The notes beneath the pieces are model-generated. The model saw only the letters and a program-made list of their open reading frames with translations, had not been told where the DNA came from and searched no databases. Of a DNA stretch of 52,452 bases, positions 1-49,384 are shown piece by piece. Position 1 is the first letter of the stretch. Every line of letters begins with the position of its first letter. The position numbers and the translations under genes were made by a program. This DNA comes from Escherichia phage EcoM1. The DNA is taken from sequence record PQ818760.1, one strand, 5' to 3'.

Positions 1-1395
1 CTATAGAGTTGAGACTTGTTCATTTGACAGCGCATTGTCCCAAATACGAAGGGACCGTACAGCAAACTCTGCCCTTGTAATGGCAGAAGATTTGGTCCAC
101 GTCGATAGTGTTGGCCGACGGTTGTTGGAATCTATGCCTGGAATACTGTGCCTGGCCACAAGAACACCGTCAACAAATATTCTTGCAGTGGTGTCTGCCA
201 CTGTTACACAAATTCTGGACCATTTCCCGACAGTTGCGACAGCAGGACTAATAACCTTGGGAGTGTTTACAAGGACTCCTGACGGGTTTCGGTATCGCAG
301 AATGACGCCACCGTCAAAACATACGAGAACCTTCAAGGTTTCCATACCAAAGCCAAATTGCCAGTTACCATCCGCACCATCTTGAACAATCTTCGTATAG
401 TCTACACATATCGTGTACCTGGAACCATTCGACAATTGCGTATTGTTGAACCAGTTTATACCCGCAGAACCAACATCAGGAGATACAAAAGCCAGTGCCC
501 CACCAAGAGCCTCATTGTAGGCAGGTTCTGTTGCAAACGTATTGAAAATTCCAGCGCCACGAAGAATGTTTACAGACTTAATAAGCGACATTTCATATGC
601 CGGAAGTTCAACAGCATATCTCGGCTCTTGTGCTGCCTTCACATCTGGGAAGTTTAGTTCCGTAACAATATTAGACTTGCTCGAAGCAGTACCAGTTTCC
701 GCATTCCCTGTGGAATTATTGATGCCGAGGTAGTAGCTCCCATTACGAAGATACAATCCACCGTCATTAACAATCTGTGCAGTCTTAGAATCATTTAAGT
801 ACACAGTCGTGAAGGTTACTTCACCAGTGTATGCCCCACCAGTTACAGGAACAGCACCAACTTGAGTTGCAGTAAGTTTGTGTGGATTGTTGTAATCCGT
901 TACGTGTGCTTGAACCATTGCACGATAGTTGGCAACAATCGAATCAAGTTCGGATTTGTCATATGCACCAATTTGTGCAGCAGTTACTTTGTGCGGGTTT
1001 GTGGTTACATCTGCAATGTGCGCATTGATTGCTGCAACAATTGAGTCGTAATTTGCACGAGAAACTTGAATGGAGCTTGGACTCCACTGTGCAGAGTTCT
1101 CACTTGGGCGTAGTGTTTTGCTAGGGTTGGTGACAGTACAAACATAAATCGTTTTGTTTGTTTCGTCCCAAGCCAAACTACCAACGCCATAACTTACATC
1201 ACTGCCCCACTCAAAGATTCCACGTTCCGCTTGAGCAAGCATAGTGGTGTCAATCTTGTATTGCAGGTAGTTAAGAACCTGGTAAGTTGGTATCTCTGCA
1301 ACCCAGCCCTTGAGATATTTTGCATCGCCTGGGTCACGTCTTGCGACAGAGTTGTTTGAGGTCCAGACTCGGTTCAGTTTAGGACGAATTGCCAT
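1..1395 (-). CDS. tail fiber protein (distal fiber gene)
   Basis: Ends with TAG at window positions 1-3; ATG at 1393-1395 overlaps the upstream stop by 1 nt (track ORF extends to a TTG at 1464). Two NPHK(V/L)TA.Q(I/V)GA fibre-repeat-like motifs; last gene of the baseplate/fiber cluster. Call from context and motif only. Confidence 0.5.
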   Translation of the reverse strand: MAIRPKLNRVWTSNNSVARRDPGDAKYLKGWVAEIPTYQVLNYLQYKIDTTMLAQAERGIFEWGSDVSYGVGSLAWDETNKTIYVCTVTNPSKTLRPSENSAQWSPSSIQVSRANYDSIVAAINAHIADVTTNPHKVTAAQIGAYDKSELDSIVANYRAMVQAHVTDYNNPHKLTATQVGAVPVTGGAYTGEVTFTTVYLNDSKTAQIVNDGGLYLRNGSYYLGINNSTGNAETGTASSKSNIVTELNFPDVKAAQEPRYAVELPAYEMSLIKSVNILRGAGIFNTFATEPAYNEALGGALAFVSPDVGSAGINWFNNTQLSNGSRYTICVDYTKIVQDGADGNWQFGFGMETLKVLVCFDGGVILRYRNPSGVLVNTPKVISPAVATVGKWSRICVTVADTTARIFVDGVLVARHSIPGIDSNNRRPTLSTWTKSSAITRAEFAVRSLRIWDNALSNEQVSTL

Positions 1396-7904: not shown

Positions 7905-10900
7905 TTATCTTCTTTGTTGCGCACCGTTGTTCATGTTCATCTGTTGAGTCACAGTCTGACCACCAGGAATTGCCACTGTAGCAGAAGCAGTCTGGTTGTT
8001 GACCTTAGCATCAATCTTAACATTAACAACAGTTTGGGTTTGACCGTATGACATTCCATTACGAGTAAACCCTGTAGCACCTTCTTCCAAAGACTGAGAA
8101 GACTTGGACCATTCACGGAATGCTTTGACGCGATTCTGTGCTTGCACGGGAACAGCAGTTAGCCAATCCAACCCATTCTTATCAACAGCTTTGTCAACAG
8201 TGCCAGGACCATCGGTGTAAGCAGCCATTGCCTTTTCGTGGTCGCCATAACGCTTGTACATTGCGTCATAATATTCACGACCAACTCGCGCATCATCTTC
8301 TGGAGTTCCATCAGACGGCTTGATTCCAAATCCTGGGTCACGGGCAGTCGAAGGAAGAATTTGCATTATTCCACGAGCACCAGTGCGACTTGTTACACGA
8401 GAACCATCTTTATTGTATTCACGACCACCGGATTCTTCCTGAGCGATAAAGTCATAAACACTTCCAGCAAACTCACGGGCCTGATTGTATCCAGTACGAG
8501 CACCGTCAAGTGCAGCACTTCCGGCTTCGAAGATTGGAGCACCATTAGATAGGACACTTTGTGGCACGTTGTAGCTAGGCAGCACGCGTGCGCGGCTCCC
8601 CTGCAACATTTCTGACTGAGCCATACCTTCGGCAAAGTCAGAGTTTCTACCCGCTTCTACCACCGAACCAGCTTGCTCATGGCTGTATTCCGTGCGGTCG
8701 TAGGCTCGCGCCATCCCATTCAGGCCAGCCATTTCGGCAGCACCTGCGATACGGGCCTGACTCCAGCCACGCTCCTTGCCCCTTTCCTGCATGATGCGAG
8801 CCAGGGCCACAGGGTCGCCGCCTGTCGCACGAATATCACCTATGGTGAGCAATCCCCTACTGCCGCGAACGATGTTCACAGCGGCGCTGGGGTCGCCGTT
8901 AAGCATGGTGTTGTAGGCACTATGTGTGGTTTGATTCAGACGTGCCGCTTGTTGTGAATTGAGTCCTAACATCTCCAAGCCTTGCGACATGGAAGAATAT
9001 TCATTAGGATTCATAACACCAGCATCAAGCGAGTTGCCGATAAAGTCATTCATGTATTCAGCAGCTTCATTGCCAATCTGAATAGCACCAATGCCTACAG
9101 CAGCCATACGTCCCGCAGGAGTTGCCATCAATGCTTGCATAACTCCGTTGGTTGCTGAACCAATACTGCCGCCAGCAATACCAGCAGCTAATGAACCACC
9201 CATGCGACCGTAGTCATCATAGTAGTTGCCACCACTTGTAAAGTTACCGCCACGACCACCGCCACCGCCAGAATATCCACCGCCATTGGCAGCATCAAAT
9301 CTTTCGCGGTCCCAACCCATTGAGTCGGCTTTGCCATTAAAGTCTGCGTCTGCACCAATACCCTTCTGCCTGTTTTCTTCCTGAGCAGCAAGGATACCTT
9401 TCTTAACAGACAATGCCATCGAGTCATTTCCAGTATCACCGTTTCCTGTGGTTGCTGGAAAGTTTTGCTCGTGCATTACAAAGTTTGGCTGGTAGTCAGA
9501 GTAAGATGCCGTTGGGTTGTACGAAGAGCGTGAACCAATGAATGGGTCTTCTGGAGTTCCAGCAACGGCAGAATAGCCACGAGTGGACCTTTGACGAATA
9601 TCTTTCCAGATTCCATCACCAGTCATTGCACTTCTTGCACCAGAAATCAGTTCTTCACGGTCTAGCCCAGCATTGTTTCTAACAAACTCTCGCCCAGCAT
9701 CAAGACGGCCAAGCACAGAATCAAGACGATTTCGGTTTCTCTCGTACCATCCTTCGTCCTTCTCAATCCATTGTGAACGTGTTTCGTCGTTGATGGTTTG
9801 TGAGAACAAAGCACGAGAACGGCCAGAAACGTGCATACCAAATTGAATTTGGTCCATGTAATCTGGATGGTCGCCTTTAAGAAGGTCGGCAAACTTACCA
9901 GCCCTTTGCGGATTCTTGTGCTCCCAAATGGCATCATCGCCAATAAGGCCATCAGGAGAATACATGAAGGCGGGATAGTTGTCATTTGTTATAGCGCCAG
10001 TTTGTTTGATATCGAATCCAAATTCCTTACCAACACGAGCGCGTGCTTCTTCTTCCGTCCTGTGACCATCAGCGAACATCTTTTTGGTGAAATCGCTGTG
10101 CTCTTTACTACGAGATAAACCAATCTTGTCAATCATTCCCGCCCAAGGTCGGGTATACGGGTTGTTTCCTAAGAAGGTTCCAACAGTTGAGCCAGTTATG
10201 TCATAATTTTTACGGAAGTCTAGCCACTCTTGGCTACCCTGTTCTAAGTCATGGAATCTGACGGGAGACTCGGAACGTCCTGTACCATAGTCGGATACAT
10301 CACGGAATCCAGCACTATCCATGTTTGCAATCGCAATTTCCTCACGACGCATTCTTGCAGAGTTCCAATTAGTGGCCTCTCCAAGTTGTGCTGTAAATTC
10401 TGTAGATGTTGATTGCGAATCTTTTTCGACTCGCTGTGATGCTCCCTTCATCTTTGGAATGCGAACAGGTTCGGCATCCATTTTGTCATAAGTGTTTTCG
10501 AGAATAGCTCGAACACTCGATGCAGAATAAGCTGGTTCATCTGCAAGTTCAGAACGAAGGTTTTCATACCCGCTTCTGGCTTCTTCCAAATCTGTATAGC
10601 GAGTTGCGCTATCCATAATCATGTCACGGTCAGATACTTCGTGACGAGTATTCATCATCCCTTTGGAGCCAGAATAAACTTTGGCAGCAGATTTAACAGC
10701 TTCACTAATGGAAGAATACAAAGCCTTGCTTGGTTCGCTCCAACCTGTGCCACCAGTTAATGATGCAGTGAGGGAGTATTCTGGATTTATGCCGGAACCA
10801 TAAGAACCAAGTGGGAGTCCAGATGCGTTAAGAGGTGCACGAGGATGTGCAATGCCAGAAACAATTGAAGGAGAACCAATCTGAGGAAGTGCATCCATGT

Positions 10901-11630
10901 AAGAAATATGTGGGGCCGATTTATTTCCTACATTAGAGGCCGAGGTATACCCAACTTCCTTAAAGGCTGTGGGTAACTCTTGTTCCAGACGTTTGGCAAC
11001 TCGACTAATGTCTCTTGCGTATTGTTCATGATTGCTGTATTGCTCACGGTCAACATACATGTGAGCCATGTAGTTGTATGAGTCGGCAATGTTTCCACGG
11101 TTGGTGGAGTATTCTGCCATAATATCACCAGCATAATGACCTGGGATTTCTGGCATAATATCTTGATGCCCTTGCAAAGTATCTCGCATGTAGGCATTAA
11201 GCATGTTGAAGCTACCTTGCGGTAAGTTCGGATTTGGCTTTGGCATGTGCATCCACACATCGTCTGTGTTGACACCAAGCCTTTCCATGTATGCGTGAAC
11301 AGCTTCTACATGGTGTGTTGGGCCATTCATTGCTGCATGAAATGCTTCTGTGTAGCCAGCACTTGAAAGCACTTGTGCAATGTGGGCAGCGTCTGAAATC
11401 ATGGAAGAGTCGCCCAAAGATTCAGTAATTAAACTGTCATCTTCAAACGACCCACCCATTAATTCTGCATTTGTATCCAGCCATCCCGAAGCAGCGCTCG
11501 CACTAAGTTGTTGAACCATGTGCGACTTCTTCATACCAGCATGGAAAGTCAGACCGCTTTGAGAGCCTAATGCAATTAACTCATTAACGCTCAACTTCAT
11601 TAAATCTTTTTGATTAGCCATTGTCTTCAT
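7905..11630 (-). CDS. tail tape measure protein with lytic transglycosylase (SLT) domain
   Basis: 1241 aa, largest ORF, downstream of tube and chaperone genes; contains GARGIMQILPSTA...YTDGPG transglycosylase-like segment and a Gly-rich region. Confidence 0.7.
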   Translation of the reverse strand: MKTMANQKDLMKLSVNELIALGSQSGLTFHAGMKKSHMVQQLSASAASGWLDTNAELMGGSFEDDSLITESLGDSSMISDAAHIAQVLSSAGYTEAFHAAMNGPTHHVEAVHAYMERLGVNTDDVWMHMPKPNPNLPQGSFNMLNAYMRDTLQGHQDIMPEIPGHYAGDIMAEYSTNRGNIADSYNYMAHMYVDREQYSNHEQYARDISRVAKRLEQELPTAFKEVGYTSASNVGNKSAPHISYMDALPQIGSPSIVSGIAHPRAPLNASGLPLGSYGSGINPEYSLTASLTGGTGWSEPSKALYSSISEAVKSAAKVYSGSKGMMNTRHEVSDRDMIMDSATRYTDLEEARSGYENLRSELADEPAYSASSVRAILENTYDKMDAEPVRIPKMKGASQRVEKDSQSTSTEFTAQLGEATNWNSARMRREEIAIANMDSAGFRDVSDYGTGRSESPVRFHDLEQGSQEWLDFRKNYDITGSTVGTFLGNNPYTRPWAGMIDKIGLSRSKEHSDFTKKMFADGHRTEEEARARVGKEFGFDIKQTGAITNDNYPAFMYSPDGLIGDDAIWEHKNPQRAGKFADLLKGDHPDYMDQIQFGMHVSGRSRALFSQTINDETRSQWIEKDEGWYERNRNRLDSVLGRLDAGREFVRNNAGLDREELISGARSAMTGDGIWKDIRQRSTRGYSAVAGTPEDPFIGSRSSYNPTASYSDYQPNFVMHEQNFPATTGNGDTGNDSMALSVKKGILAAQEENRQKGIGADADFNGKADSMGWDRERFDAANGGGYSGGGGGRGGNFTSGGNYYDDYGRMGGSLAAGIAGGSIGSATNGVMQALMATPAGRMAAVGIGAIQIGNEAAEYMNDFIGNSLDAGVMNPNEYSSMSQGLEMLGLNSQQAARLNQTTHSAYNTMLNGDPSAAVNIVRGSRGLLTIGDIRATGGDPVALARIMQERGKERGWSQARIAGAAEMAGLNGMARAYDRTEYSHEQAGSVVEAGRNSDFAEGMAQSEMLQGSRARVLPSYNVPQSVLSNGAPIFEAGSAALDGARTGYNQAREFAGSVYDFIAQEESGGREYNKDGSRVTSRTGARGIMQILPSTARDPGFGIKPSDGTPEDDARVGREYYDAMYKRYGDHEKAMAAYTDGPGTVDKAVDKNGLDWLTAVPVQAQNRVKAFREWSKSSQSLEEGATGFTRNGMSYGQTQTVVNVKIDAKVNNQTASATVAIPGGQTVTQQMNMNNGAQQRR

Positions 11631-11789
11631 CTACTGGTTCGAGTTTCTTACGCAAATCGAGAATGTCGTGGAATAGCAATAAGTCCATAATCGAATAGGT
11701 TCCATCTTGCAATTCATGTAACTTGCAGAGAGAACTGTCTTCGATTATAGGACGATGCAGAAAATATTTTATGTCGGGGAACAGGGATA

Positions 11790-12248
11790 CTAAACTGTCT
11801 CCGGACTCGAATTCTTCTGCTCTGCCAGCTTGGATGCTTCCTCCGCCTCCAATCGTCTCTGTTCGTTGATTTCGAGCCCTTGCTTGAAAAAATCAAGGAA
11901 GTTTGCTTCGAGTACGAAAGCAAAGACATGGCAAGACAACATCAATTCGCCATTGAACTGCATATCATATAATGCAGGTTTGATTTCTTGTCCGTCTATG
12001 GACGAGTGCATGCTGATAACACGCTTAAACAATTCTGTGAATACGGTATGCTCTACTTGCTGCATCAAGTATATAATATCAGCGAAGTTATATTTACCTT
12101 CGATGAATGGAAATACTCGTGAGCCTAACTTGCTTACCAACTCCGCGTGAAGAGACAGTGCAGCCGAAGCCGACAATTGTCGAACAACGACTAACACTGT
12201 TTCGCCTTTGGAGTTTGTGAATTCACGTTGAAGCAATTCACAAGCCAT
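11790..12248 (-). CDS. tail assembly chaperone
   Basis: 152 aa between tube and tape measure genes; both alternative frames stay open past its stop. Confidence 0.45.
   Translation of the reverse strand: MACELLQREFTNSKGETVLVVVRQLSASAALSLHAELVSKLGSRVFPFIEGKYNFADIIYLMQQVEHTVFTELFKRVISMHSSIDGQEIKPALYDMQFNGELMLSCHVFAFVLEANFLDFFKQGLEINEQRRLEAEEASKLAEQKNSSPETV
11886..11892 (-). other. candidate programmed frameshift site (T_TTT_TTC) in tail chaperone gene
   Basis: Minus-strand GAT TTT TTC in the chaperone frame forms an X_XXY_YYZ heptamer; the -1 frame has a TGA immediately upstream and is then open for about 89 codons to about 11618. Confidence 0.35.
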
Positions 12249-12259
12249 ACTTACTCCAA

Positions 12260-12715
12260 TTAAACGCCAATTTCCGGATAAGAGCCAGTCTTAATCTGGA
12301 GGCGCTCTACAAAGATAGACCACACGTTAGACGTGAAGGACACACCACGCTGAATTGCAGGTTGCTGCAAGATAGCGCCGTTTACACCATTGACCAGTAC
12401 ATCACCCATCTTGTCAACAATCTGAATCTGGAGCGGTTGCCACAGAGATTTGTTACCAGACAGGCCAGTTGCCTGAGTTAATTGAGCACGGCTGTACAGG
12501 ATTTCGTTCCAGTCTGCGGTTTGCAGAAGCGGGAAAGTAATAGTACCGGATAAGTCAGCCGTAGTAGCTACAGCCAACTTACCATACGCGTCAATAACAG
12601 GCAGGTGTTGAGGTGCGTTACGACGAGCAGTGATGATAGAGTTACCAGAAGTAAAACCATCTACACGAGCACCGTCGATAATGAGGTCGGTATTATAGAA
12701 AGAATATTGTTTCAC
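12260..12715 (-). CDS. tail tube protein
   Basis: 151 aa immediately downstream of the sheath-sized gene; positional inference. Confidence 0.45.
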   Translation of the reverse strand: MKQYSFYNTDLIIDGARVDGFTSGNSIITARRNAPQHLPVIDAYGKLAVATTADLSGTITFPLLQTADWNEILYSRAQLTQATGLSGNKSLWQPLQIQIVDKMGDVLVNGVNGAILQQPAIQRGVSFTSNVWSIFVERLQIKTGSYPEIGV

Positions 12716-12725
12716 TTATCGCACC

Positions 12726-14174
12726 TTACTGAACGAAGTTGCCGGAGATAACTGCACCTTGCAGTGCACCAGAACCAATCGCAATGAAGGAAGTACCTTC
12801 CCAGATACGAGCACCTTTCTGAGATTGCATCAGAGCCAAGTCGGTAGACAGGACTTTGTAACCATCCGGATAGAAGTTGCCTTCATTGTCGTAACCTGGA
12901 GCAATCAGACCATTGGTCACAGCCAGTTCCAGAGCCAGAGTAACCTGTTGGTTTACCAGAGCCACACCAGTATCGGTCCAAGGAATCTTGGTCGTAGAAG
13001 TGTAGAACAGGTTGAACACGTTGGCACGAACTTTAGAGGTCAGCCAAGATACACCCTGAACGGTATCGAACCAAGTGCCGTCAGCCATCTTGCCGTTGTA
13101 GAACATAGTGTTCCCACCAACGTTGATGAATGCGTTACCATTTACACGCTCAAGTGCAGCGAGCTGGTTCGGGGACAGGTCAGCAGTCTTGATAGCCGGA
13201 CCCTGTTTAAATGCCAGAACGAGTGCAGAGTTTGCAACGTTGAAGTTGACAGTAGATGCACGGCCCAGGATAGAAATCTCCGGATACTCGTCACCATTGT
13301 CAGAGGCATCATATACCAGCAGGGTACGCTGGAGGTTCTGTTCTTTAGCCCGTTTGAAGCTAGATTCTGCACCAACAACAAGAATCTGTGGGTCGCTGTC
13401 AGCCCAGCCGAACACTTTCTCGTTTGCTTCTGCCCATTTAGCAACGGTCATCTGAACATTGCCAGAAGAACTGCCGCGATATTTGCGGTCAATTGCAACG
13501 AAGAAGAAGTCGAACGTAGAGTTGAGGATTGCGTTCAGGTCGGAACCTACAGATACTTCATCAGTGCCATGCACATACACCGGACTTGATTCCGCATCCA
13601 GTTTGAATGCTGGAGCAGCAGAGCCGTATACGTCACCAATAATGGAGCTAGCGCCCACAGACTTGGCGACAACTTTGAAAGTACCTTCGCTGTTGGACAT
13701 GGTTACTGGGATACCCGCAGCAACCAGTGCCGCGTTTGCCATAGAGGTAGCAGCATCAAAGTCATGTGCAGAAGAGAAGTTGATTGGAGCGGTAGAACGG
13801 TCTACGCCATCAACGTTAATGGACAGCACGCCATTGGTTAACGCAGTGATAGTTTCCAGAGTTGCAGCAGCAGATGCTGTGACAGACCCAGAAGTTGCCG
13901 GAGTAACATCTTCATGAGTGATAGCACCCACAAGGAAATACTTCGGAGTCGGTTTCTGAGAAAACCACGCCAAAGCTGCATTATAGATTTCACCAGATGG
14001 GAAATCAGCAGATACAGCAGCCATGCTGGTATACTGGCGTACAGGAACGCGTTCGCCCGGCGCTGGAACAAACTGCTTGCTCAAGAACAGGAGCGGACCA
14101 AAACCCTCCACGGCAACAGCATTCGGAGATACCGCAATGTTGACCTGGATGATATCGGAAATTGGAATTGCCAT
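12726..14174 (-). CDS. tail sheath protein
   Basis: 482 aa directly upstream of the tube-sized gene, the canonical sheath-tube order of contractile tails; no motif check possible. Confidence 0.5.
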   Translation of the reverse strand: MAIPISDIIQVNIAVSPNAVAVEGFGPLLFLSKQFVPAPGERVPVRQYTSMAAVSADFPSGEIYNAALAWFSQKPTPKYFLVGAITHEDVTPATSGSVTASAAATLETITALTNGVLSINVDGVDRSTAPINFSSAHDFDAATSMANAALVAAGIPVTMSNSEGTFKVVAKSVGASSIIGDVYGSAAPAFKLDAESSPVYVHGTDEVSVGSDLNAILNSTFDFFFVAIDRKYRGSSSGNVQMTVAKWAEANEKVFGWADSDPQILVVGAESSFKRAKEQNLQRTLLVYDASDNGDEYPEISILGRASTVNFNVANSALVLAFKQGPAIKTADLSPNQLAALERVNGNAFINVGGNTMFYNGKMADGTWFDTVQGVSWLTSKVRANVFNLFYTSTTKIPWTDTGVALVNQQVTLALELAVTNGLIAPGYDNEGNFYPDGYKVLSTDLALMQSQKGARIWEGTSFIAIGSGALQGAVISGNFVQ

Positions 14175-45078: not shown

Positions 45079-45119
45079 TTCTGCTCTCCAAATTTGGAGG
45101 GTTTACTCCCCCCCCCGCA

Positions 45120-48684: not shown

Positions 48685-48752
48685 TTGTAAGTCTCCAAGA
48701 TTGTGTATGATTTAACTGAAACGGATTATAATAGCGTAGCCATTACACAATT

Positions 48753-48770
48753 CACTTCCAACTAATATCA
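48753..48770 (-). promoter_or_regulatory. phage promoter-like element upstream of the polymerase gene
   Basis: + strand cacttccaactaatatca, 69 nt upstream of the polymerase ATG; a TATAAT hexamer lies between it and the gene. Confidence 0.35.
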
Positions 48771-48909
48771 CAAACCTGTGCCATTGTTACAACAGCACGG
48801 AGACTTTGACCTTGACCTATAAGCGAAGCGCCTAACTTGGTGTTGTTTGAAAGCCGATAGGCTTTAGGAAAAAGTTGGGGTAGGGACCGTATTTTAAGTC
48901 CGATAGGAC

Positions 48910-49270
48910 GTTGGGCTTCCCCTCCTCGGAGATAAAAATTTTAAAATAATAATGTCACAACTTCCCCTCCTCGCTGGCCCAAAAATAAAAATTATAATTT
49001 TGCCACAATTCTAGTCTCATTAATATTGTAGCAATTTGAGTCTCATTAATTCCGTAACAATATTCGAAATAAAAAAAATTATATAAAAATTTTTATAACA
49101 TAGTCGGACTTCTGTTGTTACTTCGTAACGGGTTCGAACAAATTTCGGCTAGATACAGCTGACCGACCGTGAACGAATCTATATCCAGGTACAGTTGACC
49201 GACCATGTACCATTTGGTTTTGAACTTTACGCATTCCTAATATTACTTTAAATATTGTAGCAATATTGGG
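48910..49270 (-). repeat. AT-rich non-coding block with paired direct repeats
   Basis: Duplicated cttcccctcctcg (48916, 48961), (t/g)agtctcattaat (49012, 49038), ACAG(C/T)TGACCGACC(G/A)TG (49155, 49191), aatattgtagcaat (49022, 49251), and long A/T runs. Coordinates anchored on the polymerase start and the nrdB stop. Confidence 0.45.
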
Positions 49271-49384
49271 AATAAGTAATATTTAACTTTACTTATTTTA
49301 TTCTAGCTCAAAGAGAAACGACGCTAACGCATCGAATCTCTTCTCGCATATTAACTGACAAACGTCAGCCCTCACCGTATCCAA

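Follow-up and report, generated by a model that had tools for sequence, protein, structure and literature searches.

Comparison with related phage genomes, together with the constraints on the nucleotides and codons around a single slippery heptamer, indicates that the tail assembly chaperone gene of Escherichia phage EcoM1, a myophage of the family Chaseviridae, very probably contains a programmed -1 ribosomal frameshift of the lambda G/GT type. The DNA analysed (record PQ818760.1; 52,452 nucleotides (nt), hereafter the window) is that of a phiEcoM-GJ1/ST32-like myophage (Chaseviridae, Carltongylesvirus) whose structural and tail genes lie on the minus strand, and the 1.4 kb around the site are 99.5% identical to Escherichia phage ST32 and 97% identical to phiEcoM-GJ1. 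We refer to the chaperone gene as G, to the predicted frameshift product as GT, to the -1 segment that follows the shift point as the extension, and to the conserved part of the extension as T. Coordinates of all features are collected in Table 1.

On the reverse complement of the window, the frame of G reads ...AAC TTC CTT GAT TTT TTC AAG CAA GGG... and encodes ...L D F F K..., the heptamer T_TTT_TTC covering the codons for Phe120 (TTT) and Phe121 (TTC) together with the T of the preceding GAT. It is the sole motif of the X_XXY_YYZ type, in any phase, between 12248 and 11560. The -1 frame is closed by a TGA (11895..11893) directly before the heptamer and then runs on as FF-QARARNQRTETIGGGGSIQAGRAEEFESGDSLVSLFPDIKYFLHRPIIEDSSLCKLHELQDGTYSIMDLLLFHDILDLRKKLEPVDEDNG to its TAA. 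The shift point lies 31 codons before the G stop, such that 103 nt are read in two frames, and both readings of this dual-coding stretch are conserved (QGLExNEQ in frame 0 and ARARNxRT in frame -1). These observations bear out the preliminary description of this DNA, which from the letters alone had singled out GAT TTT TTC at 11886-11892 as a slippery heptamer, and had noted a -1 frame with a stop immediately upstream that is then open for about 89 codons and ends next to the start of the tape measure gene: the heptamer is on the minus strand and in phase with G, the open stretch counts 90 codons, and its stop overlaps the region of the tape measure ATG.

By a rough estimate, a single in-phase X_XXY_YYZ motif would be found by chance in an overlap of ~34 codons with a frequency of ~0.1, so that its presence is not rare when taken alone. 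TTTTTTC occurs once on both strands of the window against an expectation of 19.4±4.2, and TTTTTT/AAAAAA is present at two loci only, against ~58-86 expected. We consider the heptamer non-random because it is the unique canonical site in the gene, the sole TTTTTTC in 52 kb, and conserved throughout the family.

To assess this conservation, we assembled 46 related loci, consisting of 17 annotated GenBank loci, 26 from IMG/VR and three from Logan assemblies. The GenBank loci span both subfamilies of the Chaseviridae, with G identity down to ~30%, and come from phages of Escherichia, Pectobacterium, Erwinia, Pantoea, Proteus, Yersinia, Vibrio, Aeromonas and Shewanella; the set as a whole provided 32 distinct sequences for the scoring of frames and stops and 29 for the codon alignment and the ratio of nonsynonymous to synonymous substitution rates (dN/dS). 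TTTTTTC is found in phase with G in 44 of the 46 loci; the deviating loci are the two of Erwinia phage Faunus, which have G_TTT_TTC at the site, and a contig denoted L047, considered below. Both the heptamer and the open -1 frame are retained where the G proteins are only ~30% identical. Furthermore, the same heptamer is kept by four outliers (L040, L041, L048 and L049) that belong to other phage types and have in common only the TAC_15 and DUF6889 domains.

The codon alignment points in the same direction. Its mean third-position entropy is 1.30 bits, and among the columns with real residues the third base is invariant only in ATG1, TTT120, TTC121 and AGG124. Although the codon that precedes the Phe pair may specify D, S or A, a third-position T is found in 28 of the 29 sequences. 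The synonymous invariance of TTT and TTC, combined with the near-constancy of the preceding T, reflects selection on the nucleotides of the slippery site rather than on Phe-Phe alone.

A separate observation concerns the AGG codon at 11877-11879 (GT codon 124), which lies three codons past the shift and encodes an invariant Arg in the 29 sequences. We considered this codon as a possible nucleotide signal, but its invariance is largely explained by dual coding, with an invariant Gly (GGN) in frame 0 and the invariant Arg in frame -1, although it may have a role at the nucleotide level in addition.

The -1 frame beyond the heptamer behaves as coding sequence. Upstream of the heptamer this frame contains 315 stops in 3762 codons, or one per 11.9, whereas the 1097 codons from the heptamer to the G stop contain none. 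Further downstream, the T block comprises 52 codons that are aligned without gaps in 29 of 29 sequences and have no stops in the -1 frame, whereas the other two contain 100-131. For this block, dN/dS amounts to 0.081 in the -1 frame, as expected under purifying selection, and to 1.06 and 2.69 in the others. The proposal of a probable programmed frameshift is therefore supported by heptamer conservation, by the open -1 frame and by this low dN/dS, and the extended frame, whose lack of conservation in related genomes would have spoken against the proposal, is conserved.

With respect to the direction of the shift, the preliminary description had held that it could not be decided by eye, in view of a 71-codon open reading frame (ORF) in the +1 frame at 11714-11929. 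That ORF does exist, and two frames are indeed open in the window, but the relatives settle the matter: judged by sequence comparison, the direction is -1. The case for a +1 shift into the 71-aa (amino acid) ORF is that this frame stays open for ~57 codons past the heptamer in the window and its closest relatives. Across the family, however, the +1 frame from the heptamer to the end of T contains 167 stops in 2875 codons (one per 17.2), and none of the 32 sequences is open through. In 14 of them it is closed within 2-6 codons past the heptamer, PP101, Y2, SSEM1, SNUABM_27, Myduc, Faunus, VPs20, SppYZU05 and pAh6-C being among these early closures. Moreover, the +1 peptide is rich in Arg and Ser and has no family match, and the dN/dS of the alternative frames is 1 or higher. 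Comparison with the relatives thus refutes the +1 direction, the probability of which we regard as negligible.

The extension also lacks a usable start codon of its own in most sequences. No ATG, GTG or TTG is present upstream of the [FY]P motif in 27 of the 30 sequences where this motif could be identified; in the window none precedes extension codon 58, the conserved block starting at about codon 32; and SSEM1 has no canonical start anywhere in the extension. This pattern bears on the alternative of a small T gene that is never fused to G and is expressed independently, its ribosomes either initiating de novo at T or reinitiating after they have terminated at the G stop. A small ORF is annotated at this place in several GenBank records, including those of ST32, phiEcoM-GJ1, PP101 and Myduc, and candidate starts can be found in some relatives, in the form of an upstream ATG in the -1 frame (L047 and the sequence P0058) or of a TTG or GTG just upstream of the conserved block (L012, L013 and L027). 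Nevertheless, the annotated starts disagree with one another (the products range from 30 to 73 aa), and some are CTG or ATC codons or fall within the conserved domain. An independent gene would also offer no reason for the ~34 open -1 codons that precede the G stop in 32 of 32 distinct sequences, when a stretch of this length would stay open by chance in ~0.05 of sequences at the upstream stop rate, and it would leave the frozen synonymous sites of the heptamer unexplained. We accordingly consider an independent T gene quite unlikely.

In-frame G-T fusions were found neither among the 46 G homologs, all of which end at ~150 aa, nor among 28 clusters of T-domain proteins. When 1.84 billion representative proteins were scanned, all products with the T domain had 35-110 aa, and several of them start inside the domain. 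Given that no natural in-frame fusion was seen, the two parts appear to be kept in different frames.

Several points weigh against a programmed -1 shift and should be considered together. First, the argument from the phase of the heptamer is partly confounded, given that the Phe-Phe dipeptide is itself conserved. Second, L047 (Logan assembly ERR10503209), a distant contig of 1.1 kb (1104 nt), has no heptamer and only a U_UUU tetramer, its homologous site (nt ~217-262) reading GCT TTT ATG AAA GGG, and its -1 frame has an ATG five codons upstream. At least one lineage may thus make T differently, either from an independent initiation or by a shift on the tetramer, and the heptamer rule may not be universal outside the Chaseviridae. 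Third, neither a conserved downstream hairpin or pseudoknot nor an upstream Shine-Dalgarno-like stimulator was found in the relatives compared. Fourth, in the literature searched we found no protein, ribosome-profiling or reporter data for the Chaseviridae, no account of this frameshift for any member of the family and no mention of one in the papers on ST32, Mangalitsa, Myduc, PP101 or 4HA13, no text that pairs TTTTTTC with "tail assembly chaperone", and no proteomics for PP101 or ST32. Finally, the run of six U could in principle also support slippage by RNA polymerase.

In the case of transcriptional slippage, a T7-like phage RNA polymerase (or that of the host) would insert one more U into the U6 run, and normal decoding of the altered mRNA would give GT, a one-nucleotide insertion yielding the same protein as a -1 shift. 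The composition of the genome could be read in this way, inasmuch as A/T runs of at least 6 are nearly purged from it (2 versus 58±8 expected, a ratio of 0.03); this suggests that such runs are hazardous for a polymerase of this type and that the sole coding one is put to use. However, productive bacterial slippage has been described for runs of ~9 A or T, as opposed to 6 here and only 5 in Faunus (PMC5009743). Except in L047, neither the final C nor the A-site tetramer U_UUC varies, as would be expected if tRNAs re-pair at the site rather than if the polymerase slips, and the same heptamer is present in the outlying L040, L041 and L048, whose polymerase may be of another type. Because the run is short, its terminal C is invariant, and bacterial slippage is described for about nine bases, we rate this explanation as improbable. 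By the same token, there is at most a slim chance that a T7-like polymerase slips or pauses on such runs and that GT is made partly or wholly at the level of transcription; if this were true, it would be the first tail chaperone fusion made in such a way, and the purge would find its explanation in genome-wide selection against slippage.

The depletion itself is pronounced. The only A/T runs of at least 6 in the window are the one within the slippery site (11887-11892) and a non-coding A8 at 49071-49078, and for runs of at least 5 the ratio of observed to expected is 0.15. Phage T7 displays the same depletion, with ratios of 0.07 (runs of at least 6) and 0.14 (at least 5), whereas lambda is enriched (1.99 and 1.53, respectively). 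The depletion of A/T homopolymers may be linked to transcription by T7-like single-subunit RNA polymerases. Retention of the slippery run against so strong a genome-wide bias supports its function.

Two further features of the homopolymer landscape were recorded in passing. The A8 run is located in an AT-rich gap of ~700 nt (48685-49384) that has no ORF of at least 50 aa, contains repeated gtctcattaat motifs, and may serve in regulation or as an origin. Among G/C runs, a single one in the window exceeds 5, a C9 at 45108-45116 (plus strand; G9 on the gene strand), which adjoins the inverted repeat ctccaaatttggag.

As for RNA signals beyond the heptamer, RNAalifold predicted no pairs downstream of it in 14 diverse sequences, minimum-free-energy (MFE) folds of the individual sequences had no common downstream hairpin, and the fold of a 113-nt segment of the window has a z-score of -1.0; the check for a downstream pseudoknot or hairpin that had been suggested at the outset, shuffled controls included, thus yielded no conserved element. 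Similarly, no Shine-Dalgarno-like stimulator is visible within 30 nt upstream in any lineage. The signal appears to consist of the heptamer alone. In lambda, G/GT frameshifting is likewise not known to need a downstream hairpin or pseudoknot. We did examine a candidate long-range stem of 9 bp that starts 6 nt after the heptamer and is part of the MFE fold of the window; it belongs to the Escherichia/Pectobacterium/Yersinia clade and is missing from the MFE folds of the Erwinia, Proteus, Vibrio, Aeromonas and Shewanella relatives, and its cells pair in 68.3% of cases versus 63.6% in shuffles. With no family-wide support, this stem is not claimed as part of the signal. A signal made of the heptamer alone suggests low efficiency, and since no stimulator was found, the ratio of GT to G is probably a few percent. 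It has been reported that UUY codons in the A site and homogeneous heptamers are frameshift-prone in Escherichia coli (PMC4066793).

Thus, we propose that most ribosomes would read G from 12248 to the TAG ending at 11790 and release the chaperone of 152 aa, and that a minority, with tRNA-Phe in the P site (on UUU) as well as in the A site (on UUC) of U_UUU_UUC, would slip back by one base, the two tRNAs then re-pairing on UUU UUU. Decoding in the -1 frame would resume with CAA GCA AGG and continue for 90 codons to the TAA (11616..11614) that overlaps the tape measure start. The GT protein predicted in this manner (211 aa) would consist of the first 121 residues of G, a flexible linker of ~30 residues and a helical T domain of ~55 residues. 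Its junction, Phe121/Gln, is predicted to yield the GluC peptide ANFLDFFQARARNQRTE and a tryptic junction peptide of 48 aa. According to the lambda model (PMC5009743), the tape measure protein is bound by G and by the G portion of GT, and the tube subunit is recruited through the T domain. By analogy with lambda gpG and gpGT, G and the G part of GT could coat the tape measure protein, T could bring in the tail tube subunit, and neither G nor GT would be expected to stay in the virion.

The identity of the two proteins is consistent with this proposal. G matches the Pfam family PF21822 (Phage_TAC_15) over residues 20-126 with 67.1 bits (E=2.9e-18; gathering threshold 22 bits), a family that also matches 12 of 12 relatives, and matches phrog_11820 'tail assembly chaperone' with E=2.5e-75; these matches, and the location of G between the tail tube and tape measure genes, agree with the earlier designation of the gene as a tail assembly chaperone upstream of the tape measure gene. 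The C-terminal 50 residues of the extension match phrog_4364, a family of unknown function, with E=1.4e-18. In addition, the GT protein of the window reaches 22.7 bits against DUF6889 (PF21829; E=8.2e-5), just under the gathering threshold of 23.9, and DUF6889 is detected in 12 of 12 aligned relatives (E of 1 or less; best 3.4e-9), the GT protein of L040 scoring 35.9 bits. Given that the T block matches phrog_4364 and, in the relatives, DUF6889, we take these families to be the T domain. The databases keep Phage_TAC_15/phrog_11820 and DUF6889/phrog_4364 as unrelated entries, the latter two without a function; the evidence presented here links them as two halves of one frameshift product.

A structural model of the extension, obtained with AlphaFold2 from 21 homologs, has a low-confidence and variable N-terminal linker of ~30 residues, followed by a confidently predicted four-helix domain (predicted local distance difference test, pLDDT, of 81-94 over extension residues 31-80; helices H32-35, H41-48, H56-60 and H66-82). 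A fold search with the model of the T domain produced no match in the PDB, and in a library of viral structures it resembles only hypothetical proteins of the same phage family. By sequence, no solved structure matched below E=0.1, and no NCBIfam family was matched.

Overlapping reading frames at this position have well-known counterparts in other phages, G-T frameshifting being widely conserved in long-tailed phages (PMC5009743), in line with the preliminary description. The gpE/gpE+E' system of P2 (Peduoviridae) is the closest analog in organization and is alike in that the tail is contractile and the genes are arranged in the order sheath, tube, chaperone, tape measure (gene T in P2). P2 shifts to -1 at T_TTT_TTG, from which the T_TTT_TTC of the phage studied here differs in the last base only; the C-terminal extension is small in both (57 aa in P2, 90 aa here), and the stop codon overlaps the tape measure ATG with the same ATGnnTAA geometry (ATGAGTAA in P2, ATGGCTAA here). 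In contrast, the P2 shift takes place 7 codons before the E stop, as compared with the 31 codons and 103-nt dual-coding overlap found here, and the Pfam families differ, Phage_TAC_7 and Phage_P2_GpE in P2 as against Phage_TAC_15 and DUF6889. Homology to P2 E/E' was not detectable with hhalign (probability 0.1, E 0.56). The lack of detectable homology and the difference in Pfam families indicate a separate chaperone family that uses the same trick. Furthermore, the P2 frameshift is experimentally established and annotated, whereas the present one is unannotated and predicted from its sequence.

The lambda system resembles the present one in that a pair of overlapping ORFs separates the major tail gene from that of the tape measure, in a -1 product whose N-terminus is that of the chaperone, and in the lack of a conserved strong RNA stimulator. 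It differs in that lambda is a siphovirus, has the slippery sequence G_GGA_AAG and a ratio of ~30:1, and has proteins of other families; in the lambda RefSeq record, G and T have a coding sequence (CDS) each. The sequence features of the G/GT class (Xu, Hendrix & Duda 2004), namely overlapping ORFs, an in-phase heptamer, its conservation, and a coding frame without a start, are found at the locus described here. The frameshift is unannotated in the records inspected, yet it is an ordinary member of a well-known class and is not likely to surprise a specialist.

None of the 17 family records inspected in GenBank has a joined CDS. Where the T stretch is called at all, the ORFs are of 30-73 aa, sometimes with CTG or ATC as the start: 73 aa in phiEcoM-GJ1, 56 aa in ST32 (gp65, with a CTG start at 11784), 52 aa in PP101, 48 aa in PYps16N, 37 aa in Myduc and pAh6-C, and 30 aa in SppYZU05. 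It is not called in Mangalitsa, 4HA13, PO103-1, Y2, SNUABM_27, SSEM1, Faunus, VPs20, PAGF2_10BT and AhydM-H1. The T region is thus either missing from current records or present as a "hypothetical protein" of arbitrary length. Recognition of the frameshift would add a predicted essential product of tail assembly to Chaseviridae genomes and would give DUF6889 and phrog_4364 a function, as the T domain of Phage_TAC_15 chaperones. It also offers gene-calling programs a simple criterion: a U_UUU_UUC after which a -1 ORF extends to the tape measure ATG. Several members of the family are under development for biocontrol or therapy (against E. coli, Erwinia, Pectobacterium and Aeromonas), and correct sets of structural genes are therefore of practical use.

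The junction with the tape measure gene provides additional information on the annotation of the latter. In 30 of 30 scorable sequences among the 32 distinct ones, the start of the downstream long ORF overlaps or abuts the stop of the T frame, with stop/start offsets of -11, -8, -4, -1 or +1 and in forms such as ATGnnTAA, TAATG, ATGA and the like. In the window, the GT stop overlaps the ATG at 11621 (MANQKD...), as ATGGCTAA. The ST32 record uses the upstream in-frame ATG, at 11630, which is confined to the ST32/GJ1 subgroup. Because the relatives start at an ATG that overlaps or abuts the GT stop, the true start of the tape measure gene is, as far as these sequences indicate, probably ATG 11621 and not ATG 11630.

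The gene order sheath, tube, G chaperone, tape measure in the window is the same in 17 of 17 annotated relatives. The gene directly upstream of G is annotated as encoding the tail tube in Mangalitsa, PP101 and 4HA13.

Table 1. Coordinates of the chaperone locus, its predicted products and the neighboring tail genes in the window.
Feature	Coordinates	Strand	Basis or remarks
Tail sheath gene	14174..12726	-	phrog_205
Tail tube gene, directly upstream of G	12260..12715	-	phrog_280 (3.3e-32) and weak KPP10_Orf10 match
Gene G, tail assembly chaperone, 152 aa, 17.3 kDa	11790..12248	-	ORF; standard decoding; stop TAG 11792..11790
Slippery heptamer T_TTT_TTC (U_UUU_UUC in mRNA)	11886..11892	-	phase 0 of G
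-1 segment after the predicted shift, 90 codons (QARARNQ...VDEDNG)	11614..11886	-	stop TAA 11616..11614
Predicted GT product, 211 aa, 23.9 kDa	12248..11614	-	base 11886 read twice
Conserved T domain block, GT residues 153-204, LVSLFPDIKYFLHRPIIEDSSLCKLHELQDGTYSIMDLLLFHDILDLRKKL	11638..11793	-	phrog_4364, DUF6889, dN/dS
Tape measure gene, longest ORF, 1241 aa from ATG 11630 (MKTMANQ...)	7905..11630	-	phrog_19855, SLT domain, YqaJ domain
Candidate long-range stem, GGGCUCGAA (11879..11871) with UUCGAGUCC (11811..11803)	11803..11879	-	weakly supported
71-aa ORF in the +1 frame	11714..11929	-	present in the window; rejected as coding

Several minor observations were made on the records compared and on the neighboring genes. 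The tube gene is annotated ~39 codons short in PO103-1 (L005) and PYps16N (L016), at 850..1185 versus 733..1188 in relatives, and the chaperone gene is without any annotation in the PO103-1 record. The record PP952070.1, 'Staphylococcus phage Pel53' (host Staphylococcus hyicus), shares 95% DNA identity with this region of an E. coli Chaseviridae phage, and the assignment of its host looks doubtful. The tape-measure-like protein contains an internal YqaJ/lambda-exonuclease-like domain (aa 468-604; Pfam 2e-13, TIGR03033 6e-15) and a C-terminal SLT lytic transglycosylase domain (aa 1059-1152). It is unusual for a tape measure protein to harbor a nuclease-like domain; a YqaJ match was likewise obtained for the tape measure gene of L048, a distant contig.

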